A DNA stretch of 15,263 nt from Planctomycetota bacterium (GCA_038227875.1 JBBRPR010000109.1:1-15263); one strand, 5' to 3'; positions 2,168 to 9,191 are shown, counted from the first letter of the stretch. The notes: generated from the sequence alone by a model not told the origin. Translations and numbers: made by a program.

Positions 2168-3628
2168 TTACTTCTTTCCTACGGGGACGCCCGACAGTTC
2201 GGCCATCCGCTCCTTCAACCAACCCGCATCCAGGAAGCCTTTGATCACCACTTCCTTCACGACCACGTCCGTGTTCGCGGTGAAGCCGATGCTCCAGGTT
2301 TTTTCAGACGGAACTTCCGCGGGCAGCGCCTCGTTGAGCATTTCCTTGTCGTCGAGCATAAAGCGAAAACGGTTCGGGATGCGGTCCACCTGATAGCGAT
2401 ACGTGCCGCCAGCGGCGGGGTGCTTCCAGGGTTTGCCCGTTCCGTAGGGGTCGGCGTATACGGCGCCAGCGGTCAGATGAATGTTGCCGGTGCCGATCCA
2501 CCGGGTCTTCAGGTAGGCGCTGCCGATCTTATTGACCTGGATATCGTGCTGCGACGCGTTGACGACATATTCCGTTCGCAACGCACCAGGCTGAAAGACG
2601 GCGCGGCACGCGAACATGTTGCTGTTGCCGAAATCCTTGCTCCAATGAATGACCTGTTTCACCCGCGCGCCATCGGGTCCGGCGGTGGCCGGGCCGTCGA
2701 AATCCTTCAGGCTTTGCGGATTTTTCTGAAAGTCGTAGCGCACTTCGACATAACGGTCCTCGCCCACTTTCAATATCTCGCCACTCAACGCCATCCGGAT
2801 CTGACCGCTGATGCTCGACGGAATCGCCCGGACCGCCGCCACCGGCGTAACGTTGGCGACAGGCATGGAACTCCCTACGGTTACAGGCTCCGCAACAGGC
2901 GGCATCACCGGCGGATGGGCGCTGCTCTCCACAGGCGCGGAATTGGGTGCAGGAATGCCGGAAGCCACAGGCACTACAGCAACCACCACAGGAGACGGCG
3001 GCGCAGCGACAGGCGCCATCGGCGCAACGGCTGGCGCGGGTGGATGAACATCGGCGATAGGAAGCGGCGGCGCGACGAGTGCGGGTTGAGCCGGCGGGGC
3101 CTCCGAAACAACCGGCGTTGGCGACGCAGCAACGACTTTCGGAGTCACCGACACCGACGCGGGCACTTGCGGCTTCGCTGCGACCGTCGGGGCCGCGACT
3201 GTGCGATCGGCGCTGCGGCCGCTGGACATTAAATACAGCGCACCAAACGTACCCAGCAACAACACCGCGCTAGCCGCCACGGGAACCCATGTCGCCATGG
3301 CATTCGCGGGAACTTTCGGCTCTTTCCCTTTTGGATAATCGTGCCCGGGTCCATTGGGATGGTGCCCCGAACTCGGTGAGCGGGTCCGACCCACTTCTTT
3401 GGTCGGCCGCTTGGATGGAGTCGCGCTTGGACTCGCCTGATGATGCGGCGAGTTGTCGTGCTTGACTTCTATTTCGGGTACCGCCTGCATCTCCATCGTA
3501 AAGACGCCGACGGCACACGATTGGCAAAAGACGCCCTTCAACTTCTTGTCTTTCGCAGCGCCCGCTTCCAAATCCAGGCTACTTAAGCGCTTGCCGCATG
3601 TTTCGCAGAAATAGAGTTTCAAGTCCAT
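2168..3628 (-). CDS. Single-pass membrane protein: N-terminal CxxC...CxxC Zn-ribbon, TM helix, Pro/Ala/Val-rich linker, C-terminal beta-rich domain
   Basis: Start moved to the ATG at 3628 (MDLKLYFCETCGKRL...GVFCQSC). TM 'WVPVAASAVLLLGTFGALYLM', then about 120 aa of PAV-rich stalk and a globular C-terminal domain. Confidence 0.75.
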   Translation of the reverse strand: MDLKLYFCETCGKRLSSLDLEAGAAKDKKLKGVFCQSCAVGVFTMEMQAVPEIEVKHDNSPHHQASPSATPSKRPTKEVGRTRSPSSGHHPNGPGHDYPKGKEPKVPANAMATWVPVAASAVLLLGTFGALYLMSSGRSADRTVAAPTVAAKPQVPASVSVTPKVVAASPTPVVSEAPPAQPALVAPPLPIADVHPPAPAVAPMAPVAAPPSPVVVAVVPVASGIPAPNSAPVESSAHPPVMPPVAEPVTVGSSMPVANVTPVAAVRAIPSSISGQIRMALSGEILKVGEDRYVEVRYDFQKNPQSLKDFDGPATAGPDGARVKQVIHWSKDFGNSNMFACRAVFQPGALRTEYVVNASQHDIQVNKIGSAYLKTRWIGTGNIHLTAGAVYADPYGTGKPWKHPAAGGTYRYQVDRIPNRFRFMLDDKEMLNEALPAEVPSEKTWSIGFTANTDVVVKEVVIKGFLDAGWLKERMAELSGVPVGKK

Positions 3629-3957
3629 CGCGGTACTCTCAGCCGGGAATTGAGCACATTGTGTGGCAGATGGGAGCAAGATAGTCAAAAATGCACAATG
3701 TGTCAAGTTCTTGCGCAGAATTGTATTTCTGCCCGGGGTCGGCCCTGACGCGGCGCAAAGCCGGGAAGAGGGAGCTCGCGAGTTGGTGACAGACCTGCTG
3801 GAAATGAACGGCTATACTGACCACCATCAGATAGCGCATCCATTTTCGCCCCGCAGGCGATGGCTTGCTCGCGCGTTATAAAACGTCCACCTCTTTGTAG
3901 TCCCACAAATTCCGCACTTGGGGTAGAGTCATGTGAAATCAAATAGGAATTCATTAT

Positions 3958-4536
3958 ATGAACGAGCCCGAACCGAAACGGCAGCGCGGGCATTCGCTTG
4001 ATCTGGCGCCGTCCAACCCATCCGCTCCCCCCAGCCATTTTCGCAAGCCGCACGCTGTCCGTCCAATCAACGAAAACTACGGCGCGTCGCAGATCGAATG
4101 GTACAGCTCCAGCGCCTTCTGGGGACTGGCGGCGGTGGAGCTCGTCGTCGCTGGCGGCATCGGACTCTGGACGCGCAAATGGATGGGGCCGGATTTTCTG
4201 TTCGTCTTCGGTTGCGTGGGTGCGCTGGCGCTGCTGATTTCGTGGGTGATTCGCATGGCCTGGCGCGACGAATGGATTGTCCGCGTGCTCGCGCTGGTGC
4301 TGTTTGAAGCGCTCGGCGTCGCCCGCCTGCTCTGCAGCGACCATCCCGGCGTCAAGCGCTACGAATACCTGATCGTGATGATGATCGCGGGACTGTTCGT
4401 GTTTCTCGTCCGCGTCGAACGCGATTACAGCCGGCGCAGCTGGGGCAGCACATCCTGGTGGAGCTGCAGCAGCGGATTCGGCGGCGGTTGGGGTGGCGGA
4501 AGCAGCGGCGGTGGCGGTGGCGGGTGCGGCGGTTGA
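3958..4536 (+). CDS. 4-TM membrane protein, TIGR04222-like, with Gly/Ser/Trp/Cys tail (putative MNIO substrate 1)
   Basis: Four hydrophobic segments, motifs 'MGPDFL' and 'FEALGVARLLCSDHPG', C-terminus 'SCSSGFGGGWGGGSSGGGGGGCGG*'. Clear paralog of 4632-5438. AGGA upstream of the ATG. Confidence 0.8.
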   Translation: MNEPEPKRQRGHSLDLAPSNPSAPPSHFRKPHAVRPINENYGASQIEWYSSSAFWGLAAVELVVAGGIGLWTRKWMGPDFLFVFGCVGALALLISWVIRMAWRDEWIVRVLALVLFEALGVARLLCSDHPGVKRYEYLIVMMIAGLFVFLVRVERDYSRRSWGSTSWWSCSSGFGGGWGGGSSGGGGGGCGG

Positions 4537-4631
4537 TGCACTCGTGATCCGATTACAATCCGCCCTCTTGATTGTAGCCACAGACCCCGTTTTCATAGGG
4601 TATCCTTCCGGTAAAAGGGAGGGAAAAAGAG

Positions 4632-5438
4632 ATGACGAACAATCAGAACGACCGCAAGATTTCCGTAAGCTGTCCCAAGTGCAAGCGCCCGATCACTTTC
4701 AACGATCCGAGTCCGCCAGGTCAACTTGGACCACCCGGGCCACCGGGCCCGCGTCCATCGATGTGCGTAGTATGTCCCTCGTGCAAGTCCCGCCTGCGAT
4801 TTAATCCACCTGCTCCACCCGATCCGCTCGCAACACCCGCCGCATCTATTCCATACGAAGACCCCGCCTTATCCTCGCCATTACCGCCAGAACCTTTCGA
4901 AACCATTTCTCCGACCGTTACCTATCGCGCGACGCACCGCTTCAAGTCCTCTTCACCTACCACCCCAACAGATCCCGACACGCTGGTTCCGAGCTGGGAA
5001 ATGCCCGGCTTCGTCCCGCTCCTGGTCGCACTGATGTTCGGAGCGCTGACCATCGGTTACGCCACCCGGCACGCGATGGGGCCGCCCTTCGCGACGCTTT
5101 ACTTCTTTGTCGGCGCACTGACGCTAGCCGTCGTTTCCGTATCGCGCTGGGGCTGGCGAAATTACTGGGGGATCAGCACTCTAGGTTGTATCTTCTATGA
5201 AACGCTGGGCGTGGCGCGGTTGTACTTCAGCGACCACCCGGGAGAACACAAGTATGGCTTCCTCTTCACGATGATGTTCATCGGCGCGTTTGTCTTCTTT
5301 ATCCGGAGCGACGGCATTGATCTCTCCGGTATCGATCTCTCCTCCTTCGGCGACAGCACCGGCAGCAGTTGCGGTGGCGGGTGCGGCGGCGGTGGATGCG
5401 GCGGAGGCGGTTGCGGAGGTGGCGGATGCGGAGGATAA
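4632..5438 (+). CDS. Zn-ribbon + Pro-rich + 4-TM membrane protein, TIGR04222-like, with (GGGGC)n tail (putative MNIO substrate 2)
   Basis: GGAGGG SD upstream. CPKC...CPSC at the N-terminus, motifs 'MGPPFATLY' and 'YETLGVARLYFSDHPG', C-terminus 'SSCGGGCGGGGCGGGGCGGGGCGG*'. Overlaps the start of the DUF692 gene. Confidence 0.85.
   Translation: MTNNQNDRKISVSCPKCKRPITFNDPSPPGQLGPPGPPGPRPSMCVVCPSCKSRLRFNPPAPPDPLATPAASIPYEDPALSSPLPPEPFETISPTVTYRATHRFKSSSPTTPTDPDTLVPSWEMPGFVPLLVALMFGALTIGYATRHAMGPPFATLYFFVGALTLAVVSVSRWGWRNYWGISTLGCIFYETLGVARLYFSDHPGEHKYGFLFTMMFIGAFVFFIRSDGIDLSGIDLSSFGDSTGSSCGGGCGGGGCGGGGCGGGGCGG
5370..5435 (+). repeat. Coding low-complexity repeat (Cys-Gly3-4)n, about 15-nt period
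   Basis: TGC codons at 5370, 5382, 5397, 5412 and 5427, separated by Gly codons with varied third positions. Confidence 0.9.
5415..5420 (+). promoter_or_regulatory. Shine-Dalgarno (GGAGGT) for the DUF692/MNIO gene, inside the upstream CDS
   Basis: GGAGGT at 5415-5420, 5-nt spacer, ATG at 5426. Confidence 0.7.
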
Positions 5439-6241
5439 AGATCGGCATCGGCTACCGCCATCCGCTGGCGGCGTGGCTCGCAACAAATCCGCCGGAAGTC
5501 TCCTGCCTGGAAATCACGGCGGAACATTTCTTCGACGGCGGCGACGCGAAGCTCTCTCAGCTGGCCGCGCGCTACCCGCTCTATGTACACGGCCTGGGCC
5601 TCTCACTGGGCACGCCCGGCCCGTTGGATCCGGGAATCCTGAAGCAGTTCGCGCGCGTGGCGGAACTCGCGCAGGCGCAGTGTGTCTCCGAACACATCGC
5701 ATTTTCGCGCACGGCGGATGTCGATCTCGGGCATCTCAACCCGGTGCGGCCAGACCGTGAAACGCTGCGCCTGTTCAGCGATCACGTCCGGGAATTGAAA
5801 GCGGCCTGCGGCGGACGGCCGGTGATCCTCGAAAACATCACGACGCATCTGGCGCTTAAGGGCGACTTGAGCGAAACGGAATTCCTAAATCAGCTCTGCG
5901 AAACAGCCGGCTGCGGGTTGCTGCTCGACGTGACCAACCTGTGGATCAACAGCCGCAATCACCGCTTCGATCCCCGCGCGTGGCTGCGCGAAATTCAGCC
6001 GGAGAAAATCGTGCAGCTTCACGCCGTCGGCTACAGCGCGCCACACGAAGCGGATGCAAACGCCCGCTATCAGGATTACCACGGTGACGCGCTGCAACCG
6101 GATCTGCTCGAGTTCATCGGCGAAGTCCTCGCGTACGCGCCGGTGCAAGCCGTGATCCTCGAACGCGACGCGAATTTCGAAGACACCGGCGCGATTCAAA
6201 CCGAATTGCGCAAACTGGAGCGGCTCTGTGGCGCAACGTGA
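5426..6241 (+). CDS. DUF692 family multinuclear non-heme iron-dependent oxidative enzyme (MNIO; MbnB/TglH/ChrH superfamily)
   Basis: N-terminal 'IGIGYR', 'LEITAEHF', and the metal-ligand motifs VHGLGLSLG, SEHIAF, LENI, LLDVTNL, QLH, DYHG and ILERD in canonical order. Start moved from 5369 to the ATG at 5426, which has an SD. Confidence 0.93.
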   Translation: MRRIKIGIGYRHPLAAWLATNPPEVSCLEITAEHFFDGGDAKLSQLAARYPLYVHGLGLSLGTPGPLDPGILKQFARVAELAQAQCVSEHIAFSRTADVDLGHLNPVRPDRETLRLFSDHVRELKAACGGRPVILENITTHLALKGDLSETEFLNQLCETAGCGLLLDVTNLWINSRNHRFDPRAWLREIQPEKIVQLHAVGYSAPHEADANARYQDYHGDALQPDLLEFIGEVLAYAPVQAVILERDANFEDTGAIQTELRKLERLCGAT

Positions 6242-6740
6242 TCTCACTTCGGCGCTGGGATTGCTGCTGAGCGACCGCGCGCTGCGCGAACTGCGTGCGC
6301 ATGACCCGCAAGCCGCCGCGCGGAAACTCAATTTGCGCGCCGCAGATCTTGCCGCGTTCGCTGCGCTCGATCCGGCCGGTTTGGAAGAGCAGGCCGCCGC
6401 GCTACTCCAAAAACGCTTCTACGAAGTCGCGCAGCTGCTCCCGCAGACCTGCGCACGTTTGGGCGAAAAAGCGTACGCGCGATTTCTGGCGTACGCCGAG
6501 CACGCGTGGCCGACAGGCCATCTCCGGCACTGGCTGGACGTCGTCGGTTTCGGCGATCACTTAAGAAAAGCGCGCGCACCGGAACTCTGCCGCGCCGAAT
6601 ACAACCGCGTCGCGTTCGTCACGGCCGATCGACGCTTACTCATCGCGCTAGTCCGCGAAAATTCCGCGCTGCCCTCTCTGCAGATCCTCTACCGCCGCAA
6701 AGGCGAGCCCCGGCAGATGGGGATCAAACTCGGGCCGTAA
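6228..6740 (+). CDS. MNIO partner protein (SCO6045-like; putative substrate-recognition subunit)
   Basis: The GTG start overlaps the DUF692 stop by 14 nt. The helical pattern 'QAAALLQKR..VAQLLPQT..RLG....RFLAYA......D..GF..HL' is one I recognise from proteins encoded beside DUF692/TIGR04222 genes. Function is inferred. Confidence 0.7.
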   Translation: MAQRDLTSALGLLLSDRALRELRAHDPQAAARKLNLRAADLAAFAALDPAGLEEQAAALLQKRFYEVAQLLPQTCARLGEKAYARFLAYAEHAWPTGHLRHWLDVVGFGDHLRKARAPELCRAEYNRVAFVTADRRLLIALVRENSALPSLQILYRRKGEPRQMGIKLGP

Positions 6741-6825
6741 TCCGTTCTTCGCATTCTTTGCGTCTTTGCTCGTGATTAAAAATTGCGGTTTCCAAAAACG
6801 GGCGCTTCTCGTACACCTCCACGGC

Positions 6826-7725
6826 ATGATTGGATACCTGCGCCTCGTTCGTCTGCCGAATGTGTTCACGGCTCTCGCTGACATTATCGCCGCATTCACG
6901 ATCATGAAATTCAGCGGCGCGTCGGTCACTTATGCCACGCTGGCGTTGCTGATGGGCGCGTCGGGAGCGCTGTATTTGTCGGGGATGGCGCTCAACGATC
7001 TGGCCGACCGAGAGGAGGACGCGCGGGTGCGGCCCAACCGGCCGATTCCATGCGGGCAGGTTTCGGTGACGGCGGCAGCGATCTGCGGCTTCGCGCTGAT
7101 GTTCGGCGGAATCGGTTTGGCGGCATTGAGCGGCGTCTCGCTGGCGTGGGCGGTGGCGCTGGCGATTTCAATTCTCGCCTATGATTTCGCAGCCAAGCAC
7201 GTCATCGTGCTCGGTCCGATCACGCTGGGTTTCTGCCGCTTCTTCAATGTGCTGCTGGGCTCCGCCGTGGCCACAACGACGACGTGGGAGGTGCTCAAGG
7301 ACGGCGGCGTGATGAACAAGCCCCTGGTGATGGCCTTGACGATCGGCATTTACGCCGCGGGCCTCACCGCGTTTTCCGCGCAGGAAGAAACCGGCAAGCA
7401 GATCCGCTCGATTGTGATTGGCTGGTTTTTCTGCGGCATCGCTTTGGCGCTGGGCGGACTGACAGGCAAAACATTTTACGGCTGGATTTTTCTCGGTCCG
7501 TTGCTGCTGCTGCTGCTGTATCGCACCGTCCAACTGGCGCGATCCGGCACGCCGATCGCCGCGCGCAACCTGGTGAGGACAGGTGTGATGGGCGTCTGCA
7601 TCGTCGACGCCGGATTGGTCCTGAATTTCGCCGGCCCGGACGCGTGGCCCGCGGCCATTGGCTGCGCGGCGCTATTGATACCGTCGATCCTCATTTCAAA
7701 GTGGCTCGCGCAGAAGGAAGCGTGA
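6826..7725 (+). CDS. UbiA-family prenyltransferase, EboC-like
   Basis: 'YLRLVRLPNVFTALADI', first Asp-rich motif 'GMALNDLADREEDARVRPNRPIPCG', 'LAYDFAAKH', 'GFCRFFNVLLG', multi-TM. Start moved to the ATG at 6826. Confidence 0.88.
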   Translation: MIGYLRLVRLPNVFTALADIIAAFTIMKFSGASVTYATLALLMGASGALYLSGMALNDLADREEDARVRPNRPIPCGQVSVTAAAICGFALMFGGIGLAALSGVSLAWAVALAISILAYDFAAKHVIVLGPITLGFCRFFNVLLGSAVATTTTWEVLKDGGVMNKPLVMALTIGIYAAGLTAFSAQEETGKQIRSIVIGWFFCGIALALGGLTGKTFYGWIFLGPLLLLLLYRTVQLARSGTPIAARNLVRTGVMGVCIVDAGLVLNFAGPDAWPAAIGCAALLIPSILISKWLAQKEA

Positions 7726-7790
7726 AAGGGACAGTTTTCCTTTCACAATTTCCATCGGACTGCGCGCGCCCGTTGCCACACTTCGCTCAC

Positions 7791-7820
7791 TTGCGCTAAC
7801 GCGCGCAACGACGGTATAGT
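7791..7820 (+). promoter_or_regulatory. Possible sigma70-type promoter for the GspE-like gene
   Basis: TTGCGC (7791-7796), 18-nt spacer, TATAGT (7815-7820). GGAG SD at 7841-7844 and ATG at 7854. Confidence 0.35.
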
Positions 7821-7853
7821 AATCGCGACGTACGAACCTCGGAGCAACCTACG

Positions 7854-9191
7854 ATGAGCGACAAGAAAGCTGGAGGCGCTGCGGTCGAGTCCAATAATCT
7901 CGCGGAAGCGGTGGCGGCGACGGAGCATCTCGTCCATTTCGTCTCCTCGCGCCCGATCCCCGAAGATTCCCACAAGCAGGCGCTGCTGGAAGCCATCGGA
8001 CAAATGTTCGAAGCGGCATCGCACGCGCTCTATTTCGATCCCAGCAGCGCAGGGTTGCGCATCAGCATTCCCACCGTGTCGGGGTTGCATGAAATTATTT
8101 CGCTGCCTCTCTCCGTCGGCCGGCAAGTGATCGAAGCGATCCGGGTCGAGACGTCGATGAAAGACGATCCGGGCGGCGGCGTGCACGGACCGTTCGCGCA
8201 TGGCGTGATGCGCGTCGAACAGGGCGGCGTCGAGCGGCGCTTGAACGTCGATCTGATTCCCACCGTCTACGGCTCGGCGGCGGTGCTGCGACTGATGCCA
8301 TCGCTGCCAGCCAGCAGCGGCGATCTGGCCGCGATCGGTTTTTCGCAGACGCAGGCGCCCACGATGGAAGCCCTGCTCACCAGCGGCAGCGGTCTGGTGT
8401 TGCTCGGTGGCCCCGACCGCGATTGGGTGCTGAACACCTGCTCGGGGTTGCTCTCCAAGGCGGCGATGCTCGGCCGCCGTCCGGTCGTGGTGGCGTCGCG
8501 TGCCGGAGCGGACATGGCCGGCGTCGCGCGCGTCGAAACCGGCCGCGATCCGGCTGACACCGCCAGCGCCATTTCGCGTCTGGCCGCCGCCGACTACGCG
8601 TGTATCGGCGTCGAGAATTTTCTCTCTGAAGAAGTCGCGCGCGCGGCGGCGGCAGCGGTGAGCGAACACAAGACGCTGATCTTCGGCATCTGCGGCGGAC
8701 GCAGCGCGCCGGAAGCCGTGGGCCAGTTTTACAGCCTGGGACTGCCCGGACCGGTCAACGCCGCGCTGGCGCTGGCTACGTGTCAGATCCAGATTCCGCT
8801 GCTCTGCGGCAAATGCGCGAAATGGGGCGACGTCTCCAACGAAGACGTTTCGTACTTCGGGCTCGATCCGTCGAAGCAGACGAACTTTTTCGTGCGCACC
8901 GGCTGCGCGGTCTGCAACGGTCAGATCCTGGAATTCGCACAGACGTTCGAGATCACGCAGATCACCGATGGCCTTCGCGAGAAAATCCGCATGGGCCTGC
9001 CCTTCGCCCGACTGGAAGGCGAACTGATGACGATGCCCGGCTACACGAAGCTGCTCCACCGCTTCGGCGAATTGATCCAGGAAGGAAAAAGTTCCGCGAC
9101 CGAAGCGCGCCATTATTACATGTGGCAGATTCCCAACGCCCCTCGCTCCGCGGGCGCTGCGCCGTCGGGCAGCAGCATGAAAGCGGTGTGA
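7854..9191 (+). CDS. GspE/PulE/PilB-like protein with degenerate ATPase motifs
   Basis: Family architecture: 'ASHALYFDP...LRI', 'IPTVYGSAAVLRL', 'LAAIGFS', 'SGLVLLGGP', and a tetracysteine Zn motif 'LCGKC...GCAVCNG' followed by 'FEITQITDGLREKI'. Walker A GKT is absent. Confidence 0.8.
   Translation: MSDKKAGGAAVESNNLAEAVAATEHLVHFVSSRPIPEDSHKQALLEAIGQMFEAASHALYFDPSSAGLRISIPTVSGLHEIISLPLSVGRQVIEAIRVETSMKDDPGGGVHGPFAHGVMRVEQGGVERRLNVDLIPTVYGSAAVLRLMPSLPASSGDLAAIGFSQTQAPTMEALLTSGSGLVLLGGPDRDWVLNTCSGLLSKAAMLGRRPVVVASRAGADMAGVARVETGRDPADTASAISRLAAADYACIGVENFLSEEVARAAAAAVSEHKTLIFGICGGRSAPEAVGQFYSLGLPGPVNAALALATCQIQIPLLCGKCAKWGDVSNEDVSYFGLDPSKQTNFFVRTGCAVCNGQILEFAQTFEITQITDGLREKIRMGLPFARLEGELMTMPGYTKLLHRFGELIQEGKSSATEARHYYMWQIPNAPRSAGAAPSGSSMKAV

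Follow-up and report, generated by a model that had tools for sequence, protein, structure and literature searches.

The known substrates of MNIO (DUF692) enzymes are small peptides and small secreted proteins. Here, we analyzed a four-gene locus at positions 3958-6740 of a 15,263-nucleotide (nt) stretch of DNA from Planctomycetota bacterium GCA_038227875.1 JBBRPR010000109.1 (the window; coordinates of the locus and its surroundings are positions in it). The locus encodes two candidate integral membrane proteins with glycine/cysteine tails (P0001 and P0002), an MNIO enzyme (P0003), and a partner protein (P0004). The features by which a cluster for a ribosomally synthesized and posttranslationally modified peptide (RiPP) is classically recognized, a short leader-core precursor together with a protease or exporter, are absent from the locus. 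We propose, with moderate confidence, that the locus is a protein-maturation cassette in which the cytoplasmic tails of the membrane proteins would be oxidized by the MNIO enzyme and its partner to a tethered thiooxazole-type metal binder.

Among the described systems, the bufferin and oxazolin clusters (BufA-BufB-BufC-DoxX and HvfA-HvfB-HvfC) hold the enzymes nearest to the MNIO of the window, namely BufB and HvfB. As in those systems, cysteines next to glycine are the likely targets, and a copper-binding product is plausible. The differences lie in the substrates, the partner, and the gene content. Bufferin and oxazolin substrates are small and Sec-exported, whereas the candidates in the window are integral membrane proteins without a signal peptide. 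The bufferin and oxazolin partner carries a full DUF2063-RiPP recognition element (RRE) arrangement (PME-type 1), whereas the partner in the window is short, with 170 amino acids (aa), and bufferin operons include DoxX, whereas the cassette in the window has no DoxX gene. The TglHI and MbnBC pairs are similar in that the fold of our partner matches TglI and MbnC and the window MNIO aligns with TglH and MbnB, with low identity. However, TglHI and MbnBC act on short leader-core peptides, unlike the 192- and 268-aa membrane proteins described here.

The locus also resembles clusters in an in silico survey from 2025 (Microb Genom). According to its main text, about 40% of the cysteine-containing proteins that lack a signal peptide and are encoded before MNIO genes are TIGR04222 proteins, and the tails of these proteins might be MNIO substrates, which is a genome-based prediction (PMC12452194). 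As described there, the TIGR04222-MNIO-PME-type 2 clusters are like our locus in having a signal-peptide-less membrane protein with a Ser/Gly/Cys tail upstream of a bufferin-like MNIO, and a DUF2063-like partner without a Pfam signature after the MNIO. The pairing of a membrane-protein tail with an MNIO and a PME-type 2 partner is not new, having been catalogued in 2025 (PMC12452194). What is new here is a compact putative substrate family of the Planctomycetes-Verrucomicrobia-Chlamydiae (PVC) type, with two paralogues at this locus, no nucleotidyltransferase gene, and a tail that is probably cytoplasmic. In contrast, the TIGR04222 tails of the survey are predicted to be periplasmic. The main text of the survey makes no mention of Verrucomicrobiota or Planctomycetota (PMC12452194). 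The Adjamnio-I precursors, as tabulated in the survey, have 122-293 aa, 8-21 Cys, and no family signature, in the order precursor-MNIO-PME-type 2 (PMC12452194, Table 2). In a comparison by these figures only, P0002 is within the ranges (268 aa, 11 Cys), whereas P0001 has too few cysteines (4). The accessions listed in the survey are presumably largely RefSeq WP_ entries, of the kind that comes from cultured organisms, whereas the P0001/P0002 family is found mostly in PVC metagenome-assembled genomes (MAGs). Two accessions of the family are absent from the cluster lists of the survey (PMC12452194).

The concept is already in print (PMC12452194), and the gain here is a sharper and directly testable system and no new principle. 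If the tails of integral membrane proteins are also modified by MNIO enzymes, chemistry of the RiPP type would extend into ordinary membrane proteomes and provide a new type of tethered metal-binding site. The P0001/P0002 family would be a clean test case for this, with short candidates, a near-invariant tail motif, and an essentially obligatory coupling to the enzyme, and the N-terminal zinc ribbon makes the topology question testable.

The tailed membrane proteins

All four genes are open reading frames (ORFs) on the plus strand, and they are co-oriented with overlaps among the last three, as the first-pass annotation had stated. P0001 (3958-4536, 192 aa) is separated by 95 nt from P0002 (4632-5438, 268 aa). 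The MNIO gene (5426-6241, 271 aa) starts within P0002 and is translationally coupled to it through a 13-nt overlap, and the partner gene (6228-6740, 170 aa) starts at a GTG at 6228, overlapping the MNIO stop by 14 nt. The MNIO start is probably the ATG at 5426 and not the TTG at 5369 of the long ORF call, because alignments of 45 relatives begin at the methionine encoded there. The homologues of the partner begin at the same residue as P0004. The MNIO gene also overlaps the tail-coding end in the closest locus-bearing relative, a Planctomycetota MAG. Dozens of MAGs share this order of genes, and the arrangement is therefore more than chance.

In P0002, a zinc ribbon is joined by a disordered linker to four transmembrane helices, after which the chain ends in a disordered tail. 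In the AlphaFold2 model, the zinc-ribbon domain (4656-4802, residues 9-57), with cysteines C14, C17, C48, and C51, forms four short strands. It gave weak matches to zinc-ribbon families in a profile scan and Foldseek matches to 2nb9 and 5eio_C, and it resembles the ZitP zinc finger and LysW. The membrane core (5010-5303, residues 127-224) is modeled as four confident helices (127-144, 151-174, 179-199, and 209-224), a block in which the predicted local distance difference test (pLDDT) score is mostly >90. It contains a GPxF turn between helices 1 and 2, E190, and, in helix 3, the invariant R196. A Foldseek search with this four-helix part gave no match to a solved structure, and an ESM Atlas look-up with the membrane core gave no usable match. 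The Gly/Ser/Cys tail (5304-5435, residues 225-268) is the putative main substrate segment, as judged by its sequence, its low pLDDT (<50 from residue 240 on, with breaks), and the tail statistics of the family. It ends in four CGGGG repeats followed by CGG and the stop codon, and it holds C247, C251, C256, C261, and C266 of the 11 cysteines in the protein.

P0001 has a K/R/H-rich N terminus (nine K/R/H in the first 35 residues) without a zinc ribbon, followed by four hydrophobic helices and a Gly/Ser/Trp tail. Its C-terminal end, GGGGGCGG before the stop codon, lies in a Gly-rich stretch and finishes with CGG. The tail (4420-4533, approximately residues 155-192) is a putative minor substrate segment, assigned from its sequence and the positions of its cysteines (C170 and C190, of four in the protein). 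P0001 and P0002 are paralogues, and their membrane parts align over 90 aa with 46% identity (E = 7e-23). In a hydropathy scan, P0001 showed four hydrophobic segments; P0002 showed three, with the stretch of the third helix below the threshold. With this paralogy and the four helices in the P0002 model, the earlier description of two paralogous four-helix proteins ending in CGG was upheld. P0001 matched no Pfam or NCBIfam family, TIGR04222 included, and the profile of the core family matched it at E = 1.5e-36.

A word-based homologue search with the P0002 core returned one relative only. An exhaustive profile search over 1.84 billion representatives returned 162 clusters at E ≤ 1e-3, 89 of these at E ≤ 1e-10. 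Among the best 150 of the 162 family representatives, 137 had at least three cysteines within the last 45 residues, 116 had CGG plus at most two residues at the C-terminal end, and the tail cysteines were overwhelmingly in a G-C-G context (492 cases). Of the 100 proteins in this set with a length of at least 180 aa, 84 had two or more N-terminal CxxC motifs, as in a zinc ribbon. When 94 members were aligned, the four ribbon cysteines, G150 and F153 of the GPxF turn, R196, G218, and tail cysteines 251, 261, and 266 were at least 90% conserved; within the membrane, R196 was invariant and E190 was present in 76 of 94. The family is a compact assembly of zinc ribbon, four helices, and tail, found mainly in Verrucomicrobiota and Planctomycetota MAGs. 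Within the phylum (401 genomes), the core profile found the window's own genome and two weak matches (∼24 bits), and no MNIO or partner was detected within ∼1.5 kb of these two.

The first-pass annotation had called these membrane proteins TIGR04222-type, a label that proved wrong at the level of the model. TIGR04222.1, with a membership cut-off of 43 bits, gave no match to P0001 or P0002 even at E ≤ 10, and its best match anywhere in the host genome was 17.6 bits. In contrast, three positive controls, tailed proteins adjoining more distant MNIOs, scored 120.4, 58.2, and 114.8 bits, which indicated that the model works. From profile comparisons, a distant relationship between the compact P0001/P0002 family and TIGR04222 is likely. 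An hhalign comparison of the membrane domain with TIGR04222, run on a three-sequence alignment, gave a probability of 45.7% over 31 columns, and the core profile matched TIGR04222 proteins in two pieces, with whole-protein E values down to 4e-9. The GPxFLxxY helix of the family aligns with the first helix of the TIGR04222 proteins and the helix 3-4 pair with the final pair there; between these pieces, the TIGR04222 proteins carry an insertion of ∼115 residues. Compared with the TIGR04222 proteins, the P0001/P0002 family has an extra N-terminal helix and usually a zinc ribbon and lacks the soluble insert.

The enzyme, its partner, and their coupling to the tails

The MNIO enzyme matched PF05114 (MbnB_TglH_ChrH) at 214.3 bits, against a cut-off of 25, over profile positions 2-261 of 263, and it was also recovered by a whole-genome search; its DUF692/MNIO identity is therefore settled. 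The full set of metal-ligand motifs noticed on first inspection was also found, with H55, H90, E136, N171, H199, D217, H219, and E246 invariant in 46 clade members and D168 at least 90% conserved. In alignments with 3bww and TglH, these columns fall on the equivalent motifs, and we take the invariant His, Glu, Asp, and Asn columns to be the iron ligands of MbnB and TglH. The relatives of the enzyme in the Protein Data Bank are 3bww, TglH, and MbnB (E = 7e-10 to 2e-7). Against the curated equivalog models, the enzyme scored 184.4 bits with BufB (NF050167, cut-off 310 bits), 155.8 bits with HvfB (NF003818, cut-off 360 bits), and at most 70 bits with ApyH, MbnB, and ChrH. Since even the best models, BufB and HvfB, fall under their cut-offs, the enzyme is bufferin-like yet belongs to no characterized subfamily.

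The host genome (9.3 Mb, 176 contigs, 88% complete) contains a second, canonical bufferin-type MNIO cluster on the minus strand of contig C21 (94944-98723 of that contig). Its precursor of 141 aa has a signal-peptide-like start and repeated Lys/Gly/Cys motifs and is BufA2-like, below the cut-off; its enzyme is a BufB equivalog (361.5 bits against 310), and its partner is an HvfC-like protein of 331 aa. Contig C9 holds a third match to PF05114, which is weaker. Because a canonical BufB cluster is present in the same genome, the system in the window is an addition and not the sole MNIO of the organism.

The AlphaFold2 model of the partner, built on six sequences, had a mean pLDDT of 87.1, and its Foldseek candidates were re-aligned for Z scores (VIA-align). 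The model matched TglI (Z scores of 9.2 and 8.6, 163-166 residues aligned), NGO1945, the DUF2063 prototype (3dee; Z score of 8.1), and MbnC (Z scores of 7.0 and 6.2). All five whole-protein matches are solved MNIO partners, to which the sequence identity is low (6-13%), and the proposal that this gene encodes the partner of the MNIO is supported by the predicted fold. Os1348, of the NHLP clan (6lk7; Z score of 6.0, 27% identity), aligned with partner residues 2-63 only (6228-6420), and the next structural match was unrelated (Z score of 3.1). The likeness of the N-terminal part to NHLP leader-type proteins was also seen in sequence (NF038399, E = 4.5e-4; E = 0.0028 in a second search). No Pfam family matched the partner at E ≤ 0.01, and at E ≤ 10, there was just a chance-level ResB row (E = 0.4) and no DUF2063.

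As defined in the survey's main text, a PME-type 2 protein is encoded after the MNIO gene, lacks a DUF2063 signature, and has an NGO1945/TglI-like fold (PMC12452194). On this definition, the partner is a PME-type 2 protein, because of its gene order, its lack of a DUF2063 signature, and its TglI/NGO1945-like predicted fold. An assignment to PME-type 1, which calls for a Pfam DUF2063 match, ∼250-260 aa, and a complete RRE domain, was considered and rejected, as the partner has no DUF2063 match, 170 aa, and just a three-stranded C-terminal sheet. Precomputed matches to PF26136.1 were present on the partner homologues P0006-P0010, and a recent Pfam entry for the partner family (PF26136) may already exist; the accession was not found in the local Pfam or in the papers searched. 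A complex prediction with the MNIO, the partner, and tail residues 222-268 scored 0.02 against a mark of 0.32, which is evidence neither way.

To count neighbors, we used the MNIO as a query, and 66 loci were collected from species-representative genomes, with 48-62% identity except for three outgroups and two short fragments. Most were Verrucomicrobiota and Planctomycetota MAGs, with a few labeled Gammaproteobacteria, Myxococcota, and others; L037, in 'Verrucomicrobia bacterium LW23', seems to derive from an isolate and not from a MAG. Upstream counts were made on the 59 loci with at least 700 nt upstream. A Cys/Gly-tailed ORF was found within 3 kb upstream on the same strand in 56 of the 59, and in 49, it ended within 200 nt of the MNIO start; a gene of the core family was upstream in 47. 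The three misses were L041, with a different arrangement, L080, in which the tail is lost after the core, and L082, the tail of which has only two cysteines. The partner gene was present in 63 of the 66 loci, and the other three end at a contig end.

In an enzyme-blind scan, metagenome contigs were searched for tail-motif DNA regardless of the enzyme. Of the 80 loci found, 55 were C-terminal tails, 20 lay more than 10 residues from the stop, and 5 were in no ORF of at least 40 aa. Among the 40 of the 55 tails with at least 900 nt downstream, an MNIO was directly downstream in 5 of 5 of the four-helix family, 12 of 32 of TIGR04222, and 0 of 3 others, so that the coupling is tighter in the four-helix family than in TIGR04222. 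Both samples bear out the co-occurrence of MNIO homologues with Cys-tailed membrane proteins, on which the first-pass annotation had staked its proposal. In a quick maximum-likelihood tree (short search, one long-branched outgroup), 65 enzymes that adjoin four-helix or small tailed proteins or, in seven cases, come from loci truncated upstream formed one clade with a Shimodaira-Hasegawa-like approximate likelihood ratio test value of 100. All 16 TIGR04222-linked MNIOs fell outside the four-helix-linked clade, and the enzymes of the P0001/P0002 family are thus separate from the TIGR04222-linked enzymes.

No protease or exporter was conserved in the 66 loci, in which the only recurring neighbors were the partner and a nucleotidyltransferase-like gene. 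In the window, neither a protease nor an exporter family was among the 17 ORFs scanned. Of the 61 small ORFs (20-90 aa) at 3000-8000, 16 had at least three cysteines, and none had a signal-peptide-like start or a Cys/Gly repeat. The absence of a nearby protease, exporter, or small secreted precursor, which had been noted at the outset, held within these ranges.

Proposed maturation of the tail and competing explanations

In the maturation that we propose, P0001 and P0002 would be held in the cytoplasmic membrane by their four helices, with the N terminus and the ∼40-residue tail facing the cytoplasm. The partner would bind the MNIO, like TglI, MbnC, and BufC-type partners, and help to present the tail. 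The MNIO, which would be iron and O2 dependent, would oxidize the tail cysteines, nearly all of which are in a Gly-Cys-Gly setting, and the most likely product would be a thiooxazole-type heterocycle as in bufferins, the maturase of which comes closest among the curated models. As the surroundings contain no conserved protease or exporter, the modified tail is expected to remain tethered to the membrane domain. From there, on the inner side of the membrane, it would probably bind, buffer, or sense soft metals of the copper type. The Cys-derived thiooxazoles of bufferins, as described in the survey, chelate Cu(I) and Cu(II) (PMC12452194). The original reading of the tails as the substrate is partly supported by these results.

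The predicted topology makes a cytoplasmic tail (N-in/C-in) plausible. Since the number of helices is even and the N-terminal ribbon has no signal peptide, the C terminus should lie on the zinc-ribbon side. This topology had previously been derived from the four helices and an Arg-rich loop; the first argument, now joined by the ribbon, stands, whereas the second is weak. An Arg is conserved at the end of helix 2 (80/94) and at the end of helix 4 (R225, 60/94), the tail of P0002 directly follows the last helix, and in single-helix variants, K/R is found right after the helix. The K/R/H-rich N terminus of P0001 points the same way. By a crude count, K+R was 3.64 on the side of the N terminus, loop 2, and C terminus and 1.81 on the other side, over ∼34 and ∼15 residues, respectively.

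Several points weigh against the proposed maturation. The raw K+R excess (68/94 sequences) vanishes when expressed per segment length, leaving a weak positive-inside signal, and periplasmic tails have been predicted for the related TIGR04222 proteins in the survey (PMC12452194). P0001 has just two tail cysteines. The chemistry is extrapolated, because the MNIO scores under the curated cut-off of every characterized subfamily. The nucleotidyltransferase-like gene is missing, and the cassette could therefore be incomplete. The locus counts from the MNIO query are not independent events, because the loci were chosen by the enzyme and many come from related MAGs. In the literature, no experimental paper on the modification of a membrane-protein tail was found, only the 2025 in silico survey.

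It is possible, though we hold this tentatively, that the proteins form a new kind of integral membrane metalloprotein, in which a string of Cys-derived heterocycles on the cytoplasmic side is never released and the four-helix domain, with its invariant intramembrane Arg and conserved Glu, itself takes part in handling the metal. The membrane domain would then pass the metal across or along the membrane or signal its presence. If so, the product would be a posttranslational cofactor at the level of the protein and no RiPP natural product, with a topology opposite to that proposed for TIGR04222.

It is more doubtful that the MNIO acts on the tail by a different chemistry, producing an oxazolone/thioamide, excising a carbon as TglH does, or forming cross-links. 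The reactions of the MNIO family, as far as they have been surveyed, are diverse, the MNIO of the window falls under every curated equivalog cut-off, and the best structural match of the partner is TglI. However, the scores with BufB (184 bits) and HvfB (156 bits) are far above those with ApyH, MbnB, and ChrH, and the tail cysteines are internal and repeated, with no single C-terminal cysteine.

We consider it unlikely that the tail, while being the substrate, is modified before or during membrane insertion and is then exposed to the periplasm like a tethered bufferin. Such a location is predicted in the survey for TIGR04222, with the analogy of the periplasmic bufferins (PMC12452194), the four-helix core shares its split similarity with the TIGR04222 domain, and the positive-inside evidence for P0001 and P0002 is weak. 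On the other hand, the even helix count and the N-terminal ribbon without a signal peptide argue for the opposite side, as do R225 in 60 of 94 members, immediately before the P0002 tail, and the K/R directly after the helix in the single-helix variants. The TIGR04222 proteins themselves differ at this point. In 17 of them (loci L092-L170; a crude count without a topology prediction), K+R was 0-2 in the N terminus (in most) and in the helix 2-3 loop and mostly 5-11 after helix 3, the homologous helix. About half of them have a further hydrophobic segment before the tail, which is absent in the P0001/P0002 family, P0002 included. This extra segment could carry the TIGR04222 tails outward, as the survey predicts, and the cytoplasmic tail may be the main point where the P0001/P0002 family differs from the published TIGR04222 picture. 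As a separate observation, the positive-inside rule applied to these K+R counts would place the large middle domain of TIGR04222 in the cytoplasm, contrary to its periplasmic placement in the survey (PMC12452194).

It is very unlikely, in our view, that the membrane proteins are no substrates at all, with unmodified tails that bind metal or an iron-sulfur cluster, or with an accessory (DoxX-like) role, and with the MNIO target encoded elsewhere. It is true that we so far only infer the modification and that 20 of the 32 sampled TIGR04222 tail loci have no MNIO within 3 kb; such tails can therefore exist without the enzyme. However, the region 3000-8000 contains no alternative Cys-rich small precursor-like ORF, every four-helix locus in the enzyme-blind sample was coupled to an MNIO, and the tail-coding end and the MNIO gene share nucleotides both in the window and in the closest relative, with a tailed ORF that ends within 200 nt of the MNIO start in 49 of 59 loci. 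In addition, the substrate of characterized MNIOs, as summarized in the survey, is encoded immediately upstream of the enzyme (PMC12452194).

A true RiPP, in which the membrane domain would be a leader or anchor and an unlinked protease would free the modified tail as a small metallophore, is hardly probable. Methanobactin-like and bufferin-like products chelate metal, and the tails share with many core peptides a disordered, Gly-rich character. However, no conserved protease or exporter was found in the 66 loci, and the conservation of R196 and E190 inside the membrane suggests a separate function for the membrane domain.

Variant loci and surrounding sequence

In 52 of the 66 loci, the membrane gene is preceded by a gene of ∼250 aa with a weak nucleotidyltransferase domain (e.g., L005:162-935), which was present in 38 of the 41 four-helix loci with at least 1,800 nt upstream. 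PF01909 matched 13 of 24 members of this family (best E = 5.6e-5), which is distantly ANT/AadA-like. In the window, P0001 occupies the position of this gene, and neither a single-protein search nor a 24-sequence profile found it in the 88%-complete genome. Tandem substrate-candidate genes, as in the window, were seen in 5 of the 66 loci. By its gene content, the window locus is an unusual version, with two putative substrate paralogues and no nucleotidyltransferase-like gene. A nucleotidyltransferase-like gene also adjoins the TIGR04222-type locus L087.

Eight loci have no four-helix gene, and all eight of their MNIOs nest in the same enzyme clade. Six of these (L029, L060, L064, L066, L071, and L082) encode one to three small tailed proteins of ∼60-130 aa, the shortest of which are visibly single-helix, and have an unannotated gene of ∼180-210 aa directly upstream of the MNIO. 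The other two (L046 and L061) have one divergent tailed ORF each, directly upstream of the MNIO. Because sister loci swap the four-helix proteins for single-helix proteins with the same tails, what stays constant is the tail joined to a membrane anchor. L071 and L082 additionally have a potassium-channel-like gene, in which the filter motif is TVGYGD.

In a promoter and terminator scan, promoters near the genes were not above the shuffled expectation. The regions upstream of P0001 (3895-3930) and P0002 (4590-4625) have in common a TTGTAG ... GGGTA pattern with similar spacing, which was not called by the sigma-70 consensus scan and may represent a promoter or operator that was duplicated. A UbiA-family, EboC-like prenyltransferase gene (6766-7725, plus strand) starts 26 nt after the partner stop. 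It was considered as a member of the cassette and rejected, as it is no conserved neighbor in the 66 related loci, and it is probably unrelated to the cassette. Farther downstream, two long ORFs overlap on opposite strands, one at 7743-9113 (minus strand, 456 aa, no family) and one at 7854-9191 (plus strand, 445 aa) with weak T2SSE ATPase and HTH matches; just one of the two can be real.

In the RNA library X4, a single 253-nt contig from a close relative covered 4969-5230, and the remaining pieces fell only on GGC-rich repeats, which is too little to claim transcription. The DNA run X2, from a different study, contained a strain 95-99% identical to the window that covered 3700-7800 in pieces, and the locus thus occurs in more than one sample. 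This strain has a 9-nt deletion at 6745, just 3′ of the partner gene.

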